IMG/VR virus record: IMGVR_UViG_3300032242_002232
Coordinates: 1 to 64,000 of that record
DNA: 64,000 nt
Source of the DNA: a virus
Strand: one strand, 5' to 3'
Shown: piece after piece, positions 3,225 to 42,842 of the stretch
Layout: each line of letters opens with the position of its first letter
How positions within the stretch are numbered: the stretch's first letter is position 1
Position numbers and translations under genes: made by a program
Notes under the pieces: model-generated
The model's input: only the letters and a program-made list of their open reading frames with translations
Databases searched by the model: none
Told to the model about the DNA's origin: nothing

Positions 3225-4834
3225 GCTTTACAGGCACCTTATTGCCTTATCAGGTAGAGGCAGTAGAGGCTATGGTTTCTCGCAAGCGCATGCTTGTTGC
3301 CTATGATCTTGGGCTAGGTAAAACTGTCCTCACAATTGCTGCTTTGGAAGAACTTAGAGACTCCGGAGATATAACCGGTCCTGGTATAATTATCTGCTTA
3401 TCTTCCCTCAAATATCAGTGGAAGCAACAGATTGAGAAATTTACAAATGGATCTGCAAACGTTGTGGTCATTGACGGAACGCCGTCAAAACGAGCACAAC
3501 AATACACAGAGGCTCTCGACTGGGGGCATACACTCGTTGATTACGTCATTATTAACTACGAGCAAGTTGTTAACGACTGGAAGTGGGTTGAACAACTACC
3601 AAGAGAGTTCGTTGTCTGCGATGAAGCAACAGCAATTAAATCTTTTAAATCAAAACGAGCAAAATACGTAAAAAAATTAAAGAGTCCAGTTAAGTATGCA
3701 TTGACCGGAACCCCAGTAGAGAATGGTAAGCCTGAAGAACTTTACAGCATTATGCAGTTTGTAGATGAAAAGGTTCTTGGAAGATTTGATCTTTTTGATA
3801 ACACTTTTATTGTGCGTAATCGTTTTGGTGGCGTAGAGAGATACAGAAACTTACCTCTTCTAACTAAAACTTTAGGTGGAGCATCAGTACGCAAACGTCA
3901 ATCCGATCCAGATGTTGCCCCATATTTACCAGAGTCTTTGCATGCGGAACCAATTTTTGTTCCTTTTGATCGAGCCGGTAAAAAACTATATACACATATT
4001 GTTCGAGACCTCGTTATAAATTTAGATGATGCGATGGATTCGTTTGGTTCTGGGTTTGATATTTTTTCTCATTACGGTCAAAGCGACCAAGGCGGGATGA
4101 TGGACGAGCTTCGGGGGCTTATAATGTCTAAGATGACTTGTTTACGCTTATTATGTGATGATCCTCAATTATTGTTAAAGAGCGCGGACAAGTTTGACAA
4201 CGGATCGGTAGTGGTTGACGGCACCACGTTAAACATTCCGGGTTTTTACGGTGGGTCGGGTTATGCTTCTGAGTTAAAGGCTTTGGGTTTGTTAGAAGGA
4301 ATGACTTCAGGACCTAAACTTGAAGTTTTAAAACAATACATAAATGATTTTTTGTCTCAATACGATCAAAATAAAGCTGTAATCTTTTCAAGTTTTGTAG
4401 GTATGACGTCATTACTGCAGAACTCCTTGCCTTACGGCTCTGTTGTTTACACAGGTCAAATGAATGCAAAACAAAAAGAAGCAGCAAAGATAAAGTTTCA
4501 AACAGATCCCGAGTGTAGGTTGTTTATATCTTCCGATGCCGGGGGATATGGTGTAGACTTGCCTCAGGCAAACTTGTTAGTCAATTATGATCTACCTTGG
4601 AATGCCGGGTTAGCGGTTCAGCGTAATGGTAGGATTAAACGCGCTTCCAGTACTTGGGAGCGTATTGTCGTACAAGACATACTAATGGAGAACTCACTCG
4701 AGCAGCGTCAACGAGAGATGTTGTTGCAAAAGTCTGCTATAGCTAATGCTGTAATAGACGGCGAGGGTATTAATGACCAGGGTGGGGTAAACCTTACCGT
4801 GGGAACCTTGAGGGCGTTTCTACTAAATACATAG
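3221..4834 (+). CDS. SNF2-family helicase
   Basis: LLPYQ, DLGLGKT, CDEA, ALTGTPVEN, GGYGVDL, YDLPWN, QRNGRIKR. Confidence 0.92.
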   Translation: MSFTGTLLPYQVEAVEAMVSRKRMLVAYDLGLGKTVLTIAALEELRDSGDITGPGIIICLSSLKYQWKQQIEKFTNGSANVVVIDGTPSKRAQQYTEALDWGHTLVDYVIINYEQVVNDWKWVEQLPREFVVCDEATAIKSFKSKRAKYVKKLKSPVKYALTGTPVENGKPEELYSIMQFVDEKVLGRFDLFDNTFIVRNRFGGVERYRNLPLLTKTLGGASVRKRQSDPDVAPYLPESLHAEPIFVPFDRAGKKLYTHIVRDLVINLDDAMDSFGSGFDIFSHYGQSDQGGMMDELRGLIMSKMTCLRLLCDDPQLLLKSADKFDNGSVVVDGTTLNIPGFYGGSGYASELKALGLLEGMTSGPKLEVLKQYINDFLSQYDQNKAVIFSSFVGMTSLLQNSLPYGSVVYTGQMNAKQKEAAKIKFQTDPECRLFISSDAGGYGVDLPQANLLVNYDLPWNAGLAVQRNGRIKRASSTWERIVVQDILMENSLEQRQREMLLQKSAIANAVIDGEGINDQGGVNLTVGTLRAFLLNT

Positions 4835-30813: not shown

Positions 30814-30886
30814 TGGACCATAGCTCAGTTGGCAGAGCAGGCGACTGTTAATCGCCAGGTCCCTGGTTCGAGCCCAGGTGGTCCAG
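30814..30886 (+). tRNA. tRNA-Asn (GTT), CCA not encoded
   Basis: TGGACCA/TGGTCCA acceptor, GCTC D arm, GGCGA-CTGTTAA-TCGCC, CCTGG-TTCGAGC-CCAGG. Confidence 0.95.
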
Positions 30887-30891
30887 CTAGA

Positions 30892-33262: not shown

Positions 33263-35236
33263 TTACCTGCTTATTCTGCGCTTTTTAATAGCGCCTACAA
33301 CTACCGCTTTGGCAAGTTGTAGTAGATCTTTGCCACCCTTAACTCGAGCAAACAATTCAGCACCATGATCTAGATCATAACGCGGAGGTTGTCCTGCGGC
33401 AATGGCCGCTGCGTTCATTTCTGTGAACTGGGTGTAGTCGCTGTCGCTCATGATTAAGACAAGCGTAGTAAGAACACCACGCTTAGACAGGCGCTTGATG
33501 ATGTCATTGTTTTTATTACTGTCAAATACGCCGTCAGTAATAATGAACATCATCTTGTTTGCACGCTGAGACATCATAAAGTTTTTCTCAGCTTGCAGTA
33601 GTGATACGTGGGGATCAGTACCGCCGTTACCAAAGATGAACTTGTATTTAGTACGCTCAGCTTTGGTGTGTTTTGTATAGGCAACCTCATTCTTGTCATC
33701 AAAGGCATAAACTGTTACCGGGCAATCGATGCTCTCAAGAGCACGCTTGATAGTCCAGCAAGCAATAGAAGCCTTACGATCATTACGATCAGATGACATA
33801 GAACCAGAACGATCGACGAGAATTACGGCTTCGATATCAGTGCTATCGTCGCCTTCGGTCCATCGATCAAATGATTTATCTATATCCGCACCACGCATTA
33901 CGCGTAGCACATTTAACTTACCAGAAACAGTCTCACGCTCCCAGCCTGGCTCAGCTTCATCTTTAAGCTTGCGTAATTCATTGGCAAACTTACGATAGTC
34001 AAGCAGAGCATCGGCAGGAACACCAGTGCTTTCAAACTTACCAAGCGGGTTATCTTCGTCCCAGTTTTCATCACCATGGACGATGATATTTTGCTTGCGC
34101 TTGATGTCTTTGATAACTTCCTTGCGGTTATAGATAGATTGGAGATTGTTGTTCATGGCTTCTTTGAGGTCTTTAGGAAGACCACCTTTGCTTTCTACAT
34201 GGCCTTGACCATGTTGTGCTTTGGCTTTGTCTGTCTCATTGAAGCGTTCTTCTCGCTTAGCAAGTTGTTCATCTGCTGTGCTTGAAGTGTCATCGGCACG
34301 ATCTGTACCAGGTGTATAACCAGTAGGACCATTACCTTCGCCTTCACCCTCACCTTGTCCCTCCCCTTGCGGAGCTGGTGTACCACCCTGAGGTGGCGGT
34401 GTTTGTGTTGGTTGGGCTGGTTCTTTGGCTATGTACTCAGACTCTCGCTTGCCTTGGTTGGCAGCGACTCTAGCATCTCGCTCTTGTGCTTTGCCGGGCT
34501 CTGGTCTACCTTTCTTAATTGGTAGACGCGTGTCGCAATTACCAAGACCACACATGGGTGGGATATCCATTTGGGATATAACCAACTCATGGAACTCTTT
34601 GATAAGTGCTTCAGCTCGTTTGTAGTCACGAGGAAATGCAAGTGACCGATACTCATTAGTAATACGTTGAATATCGGGGATGAGTTCTGGCTTGTAGAAC
34701 AGATCTCTAAACGCCTCTCTGATCTCGACATCGATATGTCTACGACCAGCAATGAGAGGATAGTTAGTGAACGCCATATCTTCTGAACCAGTCAGCCATA
34801 CTAAAGCTGCGGCTTGAAGATAGGGCATGATACTTGGATACCTAGCACAGAGTAAAGACTCGATGCGTTGATCCTCCAAGATATTAAATGCGGTATATAA
34901 GTCTTGCGCTATAACCGATTTAACTAACGTAGTTCCTTCTCGAGGAGTATAGAAGTGATGTGCTAGCTCATGATAGTTGAGACCAGATAACTGGGTCAAC
35001 GTCTCCATAGTCATTTCACCTATATGCTTTTCGTTGATGTAGATATTTTCACCATCAGACCAAGTAACCGCTGGACCGTCTGGTACAACATGTACGTTGA
35101 CGGGATCACCAGTGAGGATGCGGTCAGCACCCTCGTAGACCCGAGACATAGCTGAGAGTTGTAACGCTCTCAGCTGTGCCTTTTCGGTCTTGGTTACCAT
35201 GTAATGAGCATCGTTCTCATCTACTTGATAAGCCAT
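33263..35236 (-). CDS. vWA (MIDAS) protein with N-terminal HExxH domain (CobT-like MoxR partner)
   Basis: YHELAH, NILEDQRIE, DRSGSMS, GGT, ITDG. Confidence 0.88.
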   Translation of the reverse strand: MAYQVDENDAHYMVTKTEKAQLRALQLSAMSRVYEGADRILTGDPVNVHVVPDGPAVTWSDGENIYINEKHIGEMTMETLTQLSGLNYHELAHHFYTPREGTTLVKSVIAQDLYTAFNILEDQRIESLLCARYPSIMPYLQAAALVWLTGSEDMAFTNYPLIAGRRHIDVEIREAFRDLFYKPELIPDIQRITNEYRSLAFPRDYKRAEALIKEFHELVISQMDIPPMCGLGNCDTRLPIKKGRPEPGKAQERDARVAANQGKRESEYIAKEPAQPTQTPPPQGGTPAPQGEGQGEGEGEGNGPTGYTPGTDRADDTSSTADEQLAKREERFNETDKAKAQHGQGHVESKGGLPKDLKEAMNNNLQSIYNRKEVIKDIKRKQNIIVHGDENWDEDNPLGKFESTGVPADALLDYRKFANELRKLKDEAEPGWERETVSGKLNVLRVMRGADIDKSFDRWTEGDDSTDIEAVILVDRSGSMSSDRNDRKASIACWTIKRALESIDCPVTVYAFDDKNEVAYTKHTKAERTKYKFIFGNGGTDPHVSLLQAEKNFMMSQRANKMMFIITDGVFDSNKNNDIIKRLSKRGVLTTLVLIMSDSDYTQFTEMNAAAIAAGQPPRYDLDHGAELFARVKGGKDLLQLAKAVVVGAIKKRRISR

Positions 35237-35250
35237 AATCTATTCCTTTT

Positions 35251-36645
35251 CTACTTACTTGTCTTTAGCCAAGCATCGACTTCTTCACCGATGTTTGATG
35301 CTTCAGGTTTCTGTTCTTCTGTCTCAACGAGACCGAAGTCCTCCTTGATGTTGAACTCATGGGTCATCATGACAAGAGCAACTTTTTCTTGCTCTTCTTT
35401 ATCAAAGTGTGCTACGAAATTAGCAATTGCAAACTCATAGTTGAACTTGATAAACTTTTCCAACTCCATGAACATGTTGGTTGATACTGGAGTCTCAAGG
35501 TCACCCTTGGAAGCCTCAGCACGAAGCTGCTTCGCAATAACGAGAAGCGACTTGTGTGTGATGAGCTTAGACTCTACGTCATCATCGTAATCCCACGGGA
35601 CCTGCAACTCAAAGCGATTACGCATCGCAAAGTTGAGTGGCGTTGTACCGGTGTAATCAGGATTCATAGTTGCAAAGATTGCAAGGTCTGGGTGTGCCTG
35701 AATGGTCTCACCATGATGATCGAGCAGGATCAAGCAGCGTCGTCCATCAAGAAGTGAATACAGAATTGTGTAGATTTTTGGCGAGATAAAGTTGAGCTCG
35801 TCAAGAATAAGAGTACCGCCGTTACGTACAACGTCAGTTACTGGACCGTCAATCCACTCGAACCCACCGCTTCCATCTGGTACATATTTACCGATGAGTT
35901 GGCTAGGTTCTAGAGCAGCATTGCCAGATACAGCAGCTAGACGACGTTTACGTGAGGCAGACCATGCAACAATAGACGTAGTCTTACCAGGGCCGGTAGG
36001 GCCGTAGATAAGCGTGGTCAATCCATTATCTAACGCGTAATCAAATAGGTCAAAGTCAAGAATGTCACCCGTAAGTTTACGGTTGACGTACTTGTTGGCT
36101 TGTTCGATTGGGGGAATCGTAGCTAATGCAATCCGAAGTTTTGAGGTTGAGACAAGCTCTGTCTCTTCGACCTCAGGGGCTGCGGATGTTTGTGTTGGCA
36201 TGAATTGCGCTTCTTCTTGTGAGTCTCGTTCACGACGTAGGTCGTTAACATACTCAGTCAATGAAGGATCCACTACATTCACTCTGTTGTATAGCGCAGT
36301 GATGCGGCTTGGTACTGAACCAAACTCTTCATCTTTATCTGCTTTAGCATACGCTGCCATTGCTTTAGTAGACAACACAGGAGACCAACCGGTCTGTGAT
36401 ATTGCCTGCTCATCAGCAAGAGTAACTGTTATGCCAACAGGTGTAGTAGTGATGTATTCATTGCTTGAGATACTCGCAAGCAACTCAGGTAATGATGTGA
36501 TGTCCCAACGATTTGATTTGCCAGGACCACCATCAGTGAGTCTTGAATAGACCTTTGTCTCATCGTTATGAGGTACGAAAAGTATTTGACGCTTCTCGTC
36601 TCCCATCGATGGTTCATAAGTCTCTACGAACATCGCTATATTCAT
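35251..36645 (-). CDS. MoxR/CbbQ-family AAA+ ATPase
   Basis: GPTGPGKT, WIDGP, ILDELN, ATMNP.Y, AMRNRF. Confidence 0.92.
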   Translation of the reverse strand: MNIAMFVETYEPSMGDEKRQILFVPHNDETKVYSRLTDGGPGKSNRWDITSLPELLASISSNEYITTTPVGITVTLADEQAISQTGWSPVLSTKAMAAYAKADKDEEFGSVPSRITALYNRVNVVDPSLTEYVNDLRRERDSQEEAQFMPTQTSAAPEVEETELVSTSKLRIALATIPPIEQANKYVNRKLTGDILDFDLFDYALDNGLTTLIYGPTGPGKTTSIVAWSASRKRRLAAVSGNAALEPSQLIGKYVPDGSGGFEWIDGPVTDVVRNGGTLILDELNFISPKIYTILYSLLDGRRCLILLDHHGETIQAHPDLAIFATMNPDYTGTTPLNFAMRNRFELQVPWDYDDDVESKLITHKSLLVIAKQLRAEASKGDLETPVSTNMFMELEKFIKFNYEFAIANFVAHFDKEEQEKVALVMMTHEFNIKEDFGLVETEEQKPEASNIGEEVDAWLKTSK

Positions 36646-36947: not shown

Positions 36948-37610
36948 CTAGCCCTCAATAGGTTCTTCCTGTGACATCTCACCAGTTACGATATTGAGCC
37001 GTAATGGTTTGGTGATGTCCCACTCCGATAGGATGAACTTACCACCCCATGGAACTTTACCTTTCCCACCACATCTATGACAGTCTGCCTGTTCACGATG
37101 CGGGACATTTCTTGTTTCTCCTTGTTTAGTACAGTTAAGATTGATATGGAATGTTTTATTACGACTGTCAGTGACTGGTCGCCACCCATCTTGTCCTGTA
37201 CACAAGAACGTGTGTCTCTTTTGTCCACTGCAATTGCCACAGCGTCTCTCTTTCAAAGGAGTTTTAGCTGAAGCAGCGGTAGATATCAACAGCTTTTGTT
37301 TACGATAGATTAGATCATTTAAGTTAGCGTAGTTAGCAACTGCCCTACGCCACGATGCTCTCATGAACATAGTTACCGGAGGAATGACAACCATTCCATT
37401 TGGTTCGTAGATAACAAGCGGGTTATCTTTTGACCAATAAGGTGCAATAGATACCTGATCATTCTCTAGTCTAAATGCGTAAAGGCTACGCTCATACAAT
37501 GGGCGCTTGCCTTCTGGATCTTTACCTTCTTCGATATGTTTAATGGCTGAGTCATAGTCATACACTCTCAGCCATTGATTATGGGGAAGAAGTTGAGCTT
37601 TGTCTACCAC
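36948..37610 (-). CDS. protein with DnaJ-type CxxCxGxG Zn motifs
   Basis: CGNCSGQK, CHRCGGKG. Confidence 0.6.
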   Translation of the reverse strand: MVDKAQLLPHNQWLRVYDYDSAIKHIEEGKDPEGKRPLYERSLYAFRLENDQVSIAPYWSKDNPLVIYEPNGMVVIPPVTMFMRASWRRAVANYANLNDLIYRKQKLLISTAASAKTPLKERRCGNCSGQKRHTFLCTGQDGWRPVTDSRNKTFHINLNCTKQGETRNVPHREQADCHRCGGKGKVPWGGKFILSEWDITKPLRLNIVTGEMSQEEPIEG

Positions 37611-37899
37611 GTATATATTCCCTTCTCTCGTCTTCTGTTAAACCACCCCACATGCCGTGGGATTGGTTGGTTCTTATTGAGAAGTCAAAGCATTCCTTTG
37701 TTACAGAGCAGGCATTGCAGATAGCTCTAGCTTTTGCTATTCTATCGGCTTTATCCCCACCCCTTTCTTGGTCTTCATAGAAGAACACGTCCGAATCAAC
37801 TTCCCTACACAACCCGCGTTGTTGCCAATCCCATTGGTTCGGTCTTGGGTCTAACGGCATTGTGTTAGAAGGATATGACTCATACTTTTTCCTAGACAT
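37579..37899 (-). CDS. whiB: WhiB-family factor #3
   Basis: WQQRGLC...VFF...ICNACSVTKEC...HGMWGGLTEDER. Confidence 0.92.
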   Translation of the reverse strand: MSRKKYESYPSNTMPLDPRPNQWDWQQRGLCREVDSDVFFYEDQERGGDKADRIAKARAICNACSVTKECFDFSIRTNQSHGMWGGLTEDERREYIRGRQSSTSSP

Positions 37900-37901
37900 A
37901 A

Positions 37902-38303
37902 TTACATCATGTCTAAGATTTGTTTAGTGATACTGATCTCTTCCTCAGTAGATAGACGAAGAGTAGTCAATAGCTTTTCTCTATGTCCATTGATATGTCC
38001 ATAACCATATCCATTTGTATATAGGTTATTAGACCAATCAGCGGAACGGCTTAGTTGTGGCATTGAAGGTAGGCTTACAGTCTTATCAAAAGTAATGCTT
38101 ATTCCTTTACCATAATTAAGTGTATCAATCTCACACTTGCCTTCTTTTAAAAGCTCAGCAATAGCATTAACATACTTTGTCTTTTCAGCTTCGTATGTAT
38201 CTCTTGCTGTTTTAGCTTTTGCTTTAGCTTCAGCTATGCGTACAGCCTCTGCTTCTTGTTTAGTTTCAAGTTCTTTAATGAACTCTAGTCTATTCAGCTT
38301 CAT
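37902..38303 (-). CDS. hypothetical coiled-coil protein
   Basis: SD GAAGGG. Confidence 0.65.
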   Translation of the reverse strand: MKLNRLEFIKELETKQEAEAVRIAEAKAKAKTARDTYEAEKTKYVNAIAELLKEGKCEIDTLNYGKGISITFDKTVSLPSMPQLSRSADWSNNLYTNGYGYGHINGHREKLLTTLRLSTEEEISITKQILDMM

Positions 38304-38328
38304 GCTTTTCCCTTCTGATATGAGTAAT

Positions 38329-38394
38329 GAGCCTTTTTACCTTAGGTCATGCTCAGGACCAAGTAGCAGTTTTAGTTATCATGCTCAGGATAAT
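38329..38394 (-). ncRNA. two tandem H-type pseudoknots with identical CUGAGCAU loop
   Basis: TTATC-CTGAGCAT-GATAA-CTAAAAC-TGCT and GGTC-CTGAGCAT-GACC-TAAGGTAAAAAG-GCTC. Confidence 0.7.
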
Positions 38395-38456
38395 TGGTGT
38401 AGCGGAAGCGGAGATTTCGACACGCAGTGTCTCCCAATCCAAGTCGCGTACCAATA

Positions 38457-38624
38457 CTATGAAAGAGAGATAGGTTCGCTATCCTCTTTACGGTTAGCTC
38501 GAAGAGTATCGAGCTTTGCATTAAGTGCTTCAAGATCTTTTGTCATTGCATCAAGCTCACGCTCAATAGACTCAAGATATTTGTTGATGTTCTTCATGAA
38601 CTCATTCAGTTCTTCAGGGGACAT
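38457..38624 (-). CDS. small coiled-coil protein
   Basis: MSPEELNEF..., SD GAGG. Confidence 0.6.
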   Translation of the reverse strand: MSPEELNEFMKNINKYLESIERELDAMTKDLEALNAKLDTLRANRKEDSEPISLS

Positions 38625-38626
38625 AA

Positions 38627-38731
38627 CTACCTCTTTCTCCTGTTGATGATTGATGTGAGCACGATAGTAATGCTTAGCATTACCATAATGCAAACGATTG
38701 AGTTCTCAGATATATCAAACGATACTGACAT
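38627..38731 (-). CDS. 34-aa single-TM peptide (not in ORF track)
   Basis: MSVSFDISENSIVCIMVMLSITIVLTSIINRRKR; SD GAAGGG. Confidence 0.55.
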   Translation of the reverse strand: MSVSFDISENSIVCIMVMLSITIVLTSIINRRKR

Positions 38732-38754
38732 ATTGATCCCTTCTATCTACCACG

Positions 38755-39007
38755 ATGGCAGATAAGTACACCAACCTGATATCCCGAATCTATTGTCCAG
38801 ACACGAGTTTTTTACGGACTCATTGTTTTGACTTCTACTTCGTTAGTAGAGACGCGTTTCGGCTACGCCTAACGCCTTCAATGCGTGTCCTCAAGCTGAT
38901 CAATGCTAGATTACAAGGTCTTTTTCCAACATAGAGTTATAGTCAGTTGTGCGCCTATGCCGGGGAAAACGGCGATGTTCAACCAGGTTGATGTACTTAC
39001 CTGCCAT
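38755..39007 (-). ncRNA. about 250-nt structured RNA closed by a 24-bp stem
   Basis: 38755-38778 vs 38984-39007; both mismatches are G-U only on the - strand. Confidence 0.65.
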
Positions 39008-42767: not shown

Positions 42768-42838
42768 TCCCAGATCGTCTAATGGCAGGACGGGTGCCTC
42801 TGGAGCATCTAATCGTGGTTCGAGTCCATGTCTGGGAG
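42768..42838 (+). tRNA. tRNA-Gln (CTG), CCA not encoded
   Basis: TCCCAGA/TCTGGGA, GGTGC-CTCTGGA-GCATC, CGTGG-TTCGAGT-CCATG. Confidence 0.92.
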
Positions 42839-42842
42839 CAAG

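Follow-up and report, generated by a model that had tools for sequence, protein, structure and literature searches.

Tandem H-type pseudoknots in an IMG/VR phage belong to a widespread family of small intergenic RNAs that may act as mechanical roadblocks

REP hairpins, tRNAs and ribozymes that punctuate transcripts are found at gene ends, in the same orientation as the genes, and are thought to block 3' exonucleases or to mark processing; REPs near stop codons also affect terminating ribosomes. Pseudoknots that stimulate -1 frameshifting or read-through are placed behind a spacer of 5–9 nt. In plant, fungal and picorna-like RNA viruses the coremin element, usually located in the 3' UTR and sometimes doubled, consists of a hairpin of 3–4 bp closed by a C-G pair, a spacer of conserved sequence (GUUAAACUAC) and a second, indispensable hairpin (PMC6546385, PMC10520033, PMC10321173). 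The first hairpin (hp1) is 3–5 bp long and requires a pyrimidine-purine closing pair, either C-G or U-A (PMC6546385). In the Watson-Crick variant, xrRNA-WCC, a GAG/CUC stem 2 was proven by compensatory mutants, and both coremin and this variant stall Xrn1 (PMC6546385, PMC10321173, PMC10520033). Coremin also halts ribosomes during scanning and stimulates frameshifting (PMC10520033, PMC10321173). STAXI (RF01728) is a small pseudoknot, often in tandem, that is found near DNA-handling and antirestriction genes of mobile elements and has no assigned function (PMC2864571).

The window analysed here, a stretch of 64,000 nt, belongs to an IMG/VR virus record of 99,213 bp that is rated complete and has about 43% G+C; the DNA sequencing runs that bear the site are freshwater or lake metagenomes. 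Inspection of the sequence revealed two tandem H-type pseudoknots on the minus strand (38328–38393, Table 1). Each unit has a stem 1 of 4–5 bp, the loop C-UGAGCA-U, an A-rich linker and a 3' strand complementary to the loop; the units are unequal in length (29 and 33 nt), and a C-G pair closes the loop in both. Tandem mini-pseudoknots at 38329–38394 had been proposed in the initial annotation of this DNA. Both units were recovered with the covariance model R1, which was built on copies from other phages: unit 1 scored 34.9 bits (E 1.3e-8) in a scan of the window, and the scan of the whole genome gave 33 bits for unit 2 (E 7.9e-8) and 30.3 bits for unit 1 (E 5e-7), this being the sole site of the motif in all 99,213 bp. 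The location proposed was right and its start was one base off, position 38394 being an unpaired A. It had also been noted that stem 1 differs between the units and yet stays paired, and that the identical loop pairs with the 3' end after an A-run. Both observations hold: UUAUC/GAUAA in one unit corresponds to GGUC/GACC in the other, the loop–tail helices have 4 and 5 bp, and the family shows covariation in stem 1 and compensatory changes in stem 2 (see below).

The shared 12-mer TCCTGAGCATGA occurs only twice in the 64-kb window, once in each unit, and the bare loop 8-mer is present at chance level (3 observed vs. 2.6 expected). Folding with nested pairs only gave no signal at the site (z +1.08), as expected for a pseudoknot, because its key helix is non-nested. 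The tail of unit 2 is the 'AAAAG-GCUCA' variant, which was found in other phages too. On the minus strand, 38351–38358 and 38383–38390 read UCCUGAGC, a motif-wide stretch that is complementary to GCUCAGGA, which we take to be the 5'-end segment of 16S rRNA at the 27F primer site, in its Gram-positive form; the tail variant GGCUCA presumably equals 16S nt 21–26. These correspondences were spotted post hoc and are probably due to chance.

Table 1. Positions of the two pseudoknot units, their parts and the neighbouring features in the window.
Feature	Position	Strand	Description	Basis
Upstream small ORF	38457–38693	-	78 aa from TTG; 55 aa from ATG 38624; coiled-coil-like	
TAG stop of upstream small ORF	38459–38457	-	about 62–63 nt (38456–38394) ahead of unit 1	
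Imperfect hairpin, stop codon to unit 1	38395–38455	-	-16.6 kcal/mol, z -0.88	
Pseudoknot unit 1	38365–38393	-	UUAUC-CUGAGCAU-GAUAA-CUAAAAC-UGCU	sequence and family model R1
Unit 1, P1	38393–38389 with 38380–38376	-	5 bp, UUAUC/GAUAA	
Unit 1, loop CUGAGCAU	38388–38381	-	L1 = C38388, L2 = U38381	
Unit 1, P2 5' strand	38387–38382	-	UGAGCA	
Unit 1, L3	38375–38369	-	CUAAAAC	
Unit 1, P2 3' strand	38368–38365	-	UGCU; P2 only 4 bp (AGCA/UGCU)	
Pseudoknot unit 2	38328–38360	-	GGUC-CUGAGCAU-GACC-UAAGGUAAAAAG-GCUCA	sequence and family model R1
Unit 2, P1	38360–38357 with 38348–38345	-	4 bp, GGUC/GACC	
Unit 2, loop CUGAGCAU	38356–38349	-	L1 = C38356, P2 5' strand 38355–38350, L2 = U38349	
Unit 2, L3	38344–38333	-	UAAGGUAAAAAG, long	
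Unit 2, P2 3' strand	38332–38328	-	GCUCA; P2 5 bp (UGAGC/GCUCA)	
SD GAAGGGA	38315–38309	-	starts 12 nt past unit 2; outside the fold	
133-aa ORF, function unassigned	37902–38303, ATG 38303	-	downstream of the SD	
WhiB gene	37579–37899	-	directly after the 133-aa ORF	

The units occupy a 153-nt spacer on the minus strand between the small coiled-coil ORF upstream and the 133-aa ORF downstream. For the upstream ORF, the coiled-coil matches in Pfam and PADLOC were all sub-threshold. The imperfect hairpin ahead of unit 1 is no better than shuffled sequence, 36 of 200 shuffles being equally stable. The 133-aa protein shows a weak resemblance (hhalign probability 35%) to c2, a 140-aa protein family that is flanked by pseudoknots in other phages; an HMM search of this genome did not confirm it, and the viral contigs searched contained no relatives of the 133-aa protein. 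A search of the genome found no DUF932, GP88 or c2 block, and DNA similar to the window was absent from 50,697 phage records. Downstream of whiB, genes for a MoxR/CobS-like AAA_5 ATPase and a VWA-domain protein adjoin each other (33263–36645, minus strand), and the window carries two phage tRNAs, Asn-GTT and Gln-CTG (30814–30887 and 42768–42839). In a contig from a related metagenome (run X3), position 37733 is joined to 38301, with 163 other letters replacing 567; this exchange removes the 133-aa gene together with the first part of whiB and spares the knots and the start-codon region. A 151-nt contig from another freshwater run (X6) matches 38327–38364, that is unit 2 alone, with 2 differences and unrelated flanks, indicating that the long-linker variant exists in another genome context.

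Searching with both 12-mers in tandem returned one other phage contig, L001 (IMGVR_UViG_3300025759_000173), with three units of the form CCUC-CUGAGCAY-GAGG-NNAAAC-UGCUCA. With the one-unit pattern TCCTGAGCAYGA-N4-9-AACTGCT, matches were obtained in at least 119 viral contigs, as compared to 11 for a composition-matched scrambled control, and in at least 120 bacterial or archaeal contigs from many phyla. The recurrence that the initial annotation had proposed as a check is thus observed, with compensatory changes in both stems, and the element is not an orphan. Among the bacterial and archaeal matches listed, a valid stem 1 was present in 82 of 134 copies, and chance matches inside genes numbered 19 of 134. 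Around the viral matches listed, 235 copies were counted in 1.06 Mb, with 1 to 8 per locus and loci of 30–64% G+C; most copies are single rather than tandem. The units in the window are members of a widespread family of about 28–34 nt that is located between genes of phages and mobile elements and is absent from catalogues.

No structured-RNA family for the motif was detected when the window was scanned with Rfam 15 at gathering scores, nor was there a match at E<=10 in the region 38000–38800, preQ1-I (RF00522), SAM-II (RF00521) and other riboswitches included; that the sequence could not be assigned to a named family had been stated before and is borne out by these scans. Permissive Rfam scans of L001 and five carriers yielded only tRNAs and chance-level rows, and the STAXI model had no match at E<=10, either in this genome or in the four further carriers of the motif to which it was applied. 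A full-text literature search for the motif sequence returned only unrelated eukaryotic primers. A stretch of about 470 nt in L001 (3894–4360) is free of ORFs and contains the three canonical knots and a look-alike at about 3986. It ends in the T-arm/acceptor-like GUGGGUUCGACUCCCAC-CUCUACCA, with a possible 5' partner GGUAGAU at 3952 and a tRNA-Leu directly after it. The stretch could be a divergent tmRNA-like gene or a tRNA fragment of an att site; neither ARAGORN nor Rfam called either of these there.

The family fold comprises, from 5' to 3', the 5' strand of stem 1, loop 1 (C), the 5' strand of stem 2, a one-base junction (U, C or A), the 3' strand of stem 1, an A-rich linker ending in AAAC (less often AAAAG) and the 3' strand of stem 2. 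The core has a 4-bp stem 1, with a single C spanning stem 2, whose strands are UGAGCA and UGCUCA; the linker ending in AAAC can fit the groove of stem 1. Among the matches listed, the outer pairs of stem 1 are kept in 140 and 122 of 142 distinct copies, where about 60 are expected. All four Watson-Crick types are represented at these pairs, and the third position outward is unpaired; the inner U-A pair also swaps to A-U or C-G. In a looser script search for variants, in which pairing of stem 2 was not required, 37 of 43 loop substitutions stayed paired, 21 of them via a changed partner, and the stem-2 variants were UGAACA/UGUUCA, UGGACA/UGUCCA, UGACCA/UGGUCA, UAAGCA/UGCUUA and UGGGUA/UACCUA. 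Since both stems are kept by compensatory changes, the H-type fold is well supported. Wobbles on the gene-sense strand were 17 G-U vs. 6 A-C at one stem-1 pair and 14 U-G vs. 1 A-C at one stem-2 pair, and the orientation of copies relative to genes was same/same in 147 cases and opposite/opposite in 1. The excess of G-U over A-C on the gene-sense strand and the co-orientation with genes indicate that the fold acts in the transcript.

The near-invariant sequence of stem 2 suggests that something reads the sequence as well as the shape. A conserved host or mobile-element protein might bind the UGAGCA/UGCUCA helix and the AAAC linker, for instance to repress translation or to recruit a nuclease, or the knot might draw off a host defence protein as a decoy; a protein-binding site was among the options of the initial annotation. 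Such a site would account for a stem 2 that is nearly fixed although the compensatory variants show that pairing suffices structurally, and it would suit the clustering of copies in early or anti-defence-like regions near DUF932, GP88, RadC, DUF3768, recombinase and primase genes. However, no protein family travels with the motif (the present genome is without DUF932, GP88 and c2), and the neighbours vary between phages, mobile elements and chromosomes. Moreover, the c2 model matches no RNA-binding fold and PADLOC detected no adjoining defence or toxin family, and we consider a binding site of this kind unlikely.

Copies of the family typically start 5–11 nt past a stop codon; the distances break off sharply below 5 nt and have a mode of 5–6 nt (more broadly 5–9 nt) and a median of 15 nt; the distance of 5–11 nt is typical of the family and not universal. 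Long read-through or frameshift frames past the knots were not found; in each of the three frames the next stop comes after a median of 7 codons. In addition, 26 copies are located 3–13 nt ahead of a tRNA (21 of them tRNA-Asp, largely in one conserved arrangement), and 0 just after one. A classical hairpin-plus-U terminator is present within 70 nt of 1 out of 181 knots, as compared to 93 out of 1528 other gene ends. Within one large lineage, a knot stands behind each gene of an early block, in the order GP88, 55-aa, 140-aa, 138-aa and DUF932, and then tRNA-Asp. In bacterial and archaeal contigs the neighbours are mobile-element genes (DUF7249, DUF3768, RadC, serine recombinase, primase and DUF932), and in bacterial chromosomes terminators are often present behind the knot. 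In about 28 bacterial copies, the loop holds the UGA stop of an SD-led, Cys-rich micro-ORF (MKRF.VPRV.HC..GC...S), with a normal terminator behind it. No positional promoter signal was found at the 5' edge of the knots beyond the A/T-rich neighbourhood of the stop codon, and promoter-like sites were not enriched downstream of the knots.

The micro-ORFs are 20–25 aa long (for example L192:1678–1760, L240:6578–6660, L164:2724–2820 on the minus strand and L177:7570–7668 on the minus strand) and are found in chromosomes of Aminicenantes, Clostridia, Acidimicrobiia, Desulfobacterota and others, where the neighbouring genes are not conserved; the micro-peptide matched no NCBIfam model. The 140-aa protein family c2 (L066:6101–6523 on the minus strand, alignment A3) has knots on both sides in many phages. 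Its confident structure model (pLDDT 85) consists of a long helical hairpin and a small beta sheet; comparison with the PDB gave no fold match, and the protein belongs to none of the Pfam, PHROG or PADLOC families.

The hard floor of 5 nt and the mode of 5–9 nt match the spacing seen with frameshift and read-through knots, and they would suit an element directed at the ribosome. The knot would then stand at the mRNA entry channel when the ribosome reaches the upstream stop, where it could tune termination or recycling, or stop sliding, and so insulate neighbouring cistrons. The approximately 28 bacterial copies with the UGA stop of a micro-ORF inside the loop fit such a role, and so does the effect of coremin on scanning ribosomes and frameshifting (PMC10520033, PMC10321173). 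On the other hand, there are no extended frames to recode into, and copies are also found directly ahead of tRNAs. The knots in the window start 62 nt past the stop and thus beyond the reach of the terminating ribosome; overall, we give the ribosome a small chance of being the target.

The knots that punctuate every gene of the conserved block and the depletion of classical terminators would also be compatible with processing of polycistronic early transcripts into single-gene units, either by a small self-cleaving ribozyme or through an endonuclease that recognises the knot as its signal. Conserved unpaired bases within a covarying scaffold, and the varied, mobile-element-rich contexts in many phyla, would be in keeping with this. 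However, none of the ribozymes in Rfam matched, no conserved flanking cut site was found, and at about 30 nt the knot is below the size of the known natural self-cleaving classes; such an activity is quite improbable.

In the leading idea of the initial annotation, the downstream gene would be controlled by an orphan riboswitch that senses a ligand and is built like preQ1-I or SAM-II. In size and topology the units do resemble small pseudoknot aptamers, with a short stem, an A-rich tail and a loop–tail helix, and here they are in tandem and end 12 nt ahead of an SD. But no riboswitch model, preQ1-I and SAM-II included, matches at E<=10, and one locus can carry as many as 8 copies, behind the stops of unrelated genes and before tRNAs. 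The SD lies outside the fold, the knots have neither a terminator nor an antiterminator to pair up with, and the downstream genes are not consistent in function, this phage having an unassigned 133-aa ORF followed by WhiB rather than queuosine or methionine genes. Given the copy number, the varied contexts and the lack of an expression platform, the riboswitch is poorly supported and, in our view, very improbable indeed.

Other candidates were set aside. For a type III toxin-antitoxin system (ToxI-like), which would call for regular tandem repeats just upstream of a ToxN/AbiQ-type endoribonuclease gene, no toxin family of PADLOC or Pfam was found in the flanking genes, the units are unequal and most copies are single. 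A stimulator of -1 frameshifting or read-through was discarded because long frames are absent family-wide and the stop in the window is 62 nt off. Selenocysteine insertion or read-through at the UGA of the loop was discarded as well, since the frame that follows has no consistent stop and phage variants carry UGG or UAA.

Compared to the family, both units in the window have the canonical 4 bp of stem 1 (two covarying outer pairs and the inner U-A and C-G pairs), the loop C-UGAGCA-Y with a pairing 3' tail (4 bp and 5 bp), an A-rich linker ending in AAAC or AAAAG (CUAAAAC and UAAGGUAAAAAG) and a significant R1 score. A shortened stem 2 like that of the window is found in about 10% of the family copies. 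The linkers, 8 and 12 nt by the family count, are longer than the family mode of 6 nt (186 of 238 copies). The pair is intergenic and co-directional with the genes, yet it does not start 5–11 nt past a co-directional stop, being 62–63 nt after the TAG. In unit 1, relatives from freshwater metagenomes lack the loop base U38387. Phage L246 also has the extended linker UAAGGUAAAAC of unit 2, there with a full UGCUCA and 6 nt past a stop codon. Unit 1 may be decaying, because it has only 4 stem-2 pairs and relatives have lost a loop base. The site looks like an isolated, doubled and partly eroded one in a phage outside the main carrier lineage; it is a marginal member of the family with slightly worn copies, and the window is thus a boundary case.

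Out of a riboswitch, a protein-binding site and an RNase J roadblock, the three functions put forward in the initial annotation, a roadblock plausibly fits best and a riboswitch does not. We tentatively favour, at somewhat less than an even chance, a family knot that serves as a compact mechanical roadblock, similar to coremin and other xrRNAs, and protects or defines the ends of mRNAs. This reading is based on a fold that is in the RNA sense, intergenic and just beyond the terminating ribosome, that abuts RNase P sites, replaces terminators, can be doubled and resembles coremin. The knot would be mechanically stable, such that processive enzymes could not easily unwind it. It would stop exoribonucleases, whereby the ends of messages would be fixed and shielded; here, we infer both the nuclease and the side that is blocked. 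In the majority of the family, shielding would apply to the 3' end of the cistron upstream, following a cut just past the knot. Where RNase P makes this cut at a neighbouring tRNA, only 3–7 nt would be left behind the knot. A tail of 3–7 nt is too short for PNPase, RNase II and RNase R to engage. In this phage, the doubled knot ahead of the 133-aa gene and whiB might separate decay of the upstream small gene from the downstream message, and the two copies could provide redundancy, comparable to tandem xrRNAs of RNA viruses.

With regard to the side that would be shielded, the anatomy of the family points more to a 3' shield of the upstream message than to a block of RNase J for the downstream message. 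In the window, with 62 nt separating the pair from the stop and 12 nt from the SD, shielding of the downstream message at its 5' end against RNase J, in line with the initial annotation, would fit at least equally well. Several observations speak against a roadblock: the terminators behind knots in bacterial chromosomes would make a 3' shield redundant there, the second hairpin that is required for coremin-type stalling is not enriched in the family, stem 2 of unit 1 has only 4 pairs, and the near-invariant sequence of stem 2 suggests that more than the shape is read.

A bolder version of the roadblock reading, which we regard as possible but doubtful, is that the knot represents the first prokaryotic class of exoribonuclease-resistant RNA, a 30-nt structural cousin of coremin. 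With the same reserve, it would be used by DNA phages, by conjugative or integrative elements and, in chromosomes, by some micro-genes, in many phyla. The element would, again only if this doubtful version is correct, cap ends against RNase J-type and/or 3' exonucleases, stop ribosomes and punctuate operons independently of terminators. If the roadblock reading is true, bacterial viruses and mobile elements would share a trick of eukaryotic RNA viruses, and a minimal knotted RNA, a portable part of about 30 nt, would set the ends and lifetimes of messages. It would add a new class to bacterial RNA decay, explain the terminator-poor early operons of many uncultured phages and offer a very small insulator or stabiliser for synthetic biology. 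Even without an assigned function, a sequence-conserved structured RNA with strong covariation in many phyla that is missing from Rfam merits curation and biochemistry.

How does the family relate to the described systems? Like REP hairpins and tRNA or ribozyme punctuation, its members are intergenic or at gene ends and run with the genes. Those elements are plain hairpins, tRNAs or ribozymes and species-specific, whereas the family is one sequence-conserved pseudoknot in many phyla. With STAXI the family shares the small size, the frequent tandem repetition and the mobile-element gene context, but STAXI has UUCG tetraloops and is enterobacterial, and its sequence and loop-pairing scheme are unlike those of the family. 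The -1 frameshifting pseudoknots of luteoviruses and poleroviruses (e.g. BWYV, about 28 nt) are alike in size and H-type topology; a loop 1 of 1–2 bases with a C, an A-rich loop 3 that suits minor-groove triples and the distance of 5–9 nt from the codon in the ribosome are also alike. In contrast to these, the family has no slippery site and no overlapping or extended frame, and it has many copies per genome, some of them before tRNAs.

The likeness to coremin (xrRNA-C) is striking: the family has in common with it a short 5' hairpin, a U-A followed by a C-G pair that closes the loop, and GUCC...GAC. Many family copies read CGUCC-UGAGCAU-GACG-UUAAAC-UGCUCA, and the coremin spacer GUUAAAC-UAC nearly matches their GACG-UUAAAC-UGCUCA; in both systems the loop contacts the end of the spacer. 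The units of the window also agree with hp1 of coremin in having 3–5 bp and a C-G closing pair. The carriers differ: the family is found in DNA phages and mobile elements of bacteria, and coremin in RNA viruses. Xrn1 is absent from bacteria, where RNase J would be the analogue. Stem 2 has 5–6 bp in the family vs. 0–3 in coremin, and the loop 8 nt vs. 4–6 nt. The coremin loop is YGAD (4 nt) or YGNNAD (6 nt) (PMC10520033), and the 8-nt CUGAGCAU of the window fits Y-G-NNN-A-D only when its first C is left out. Finally, coremin needs hp2 after a spacer of about 10 nt, whereas a hairpin within 6 nt was present in 21 of 184 family copies vs. 23.5 in shuffles. Because the family is without this second hairpin, coremin is taken here as an element that the knot may work like and not as a class of which the knot is a member, and the likeness between the two may be convergent.
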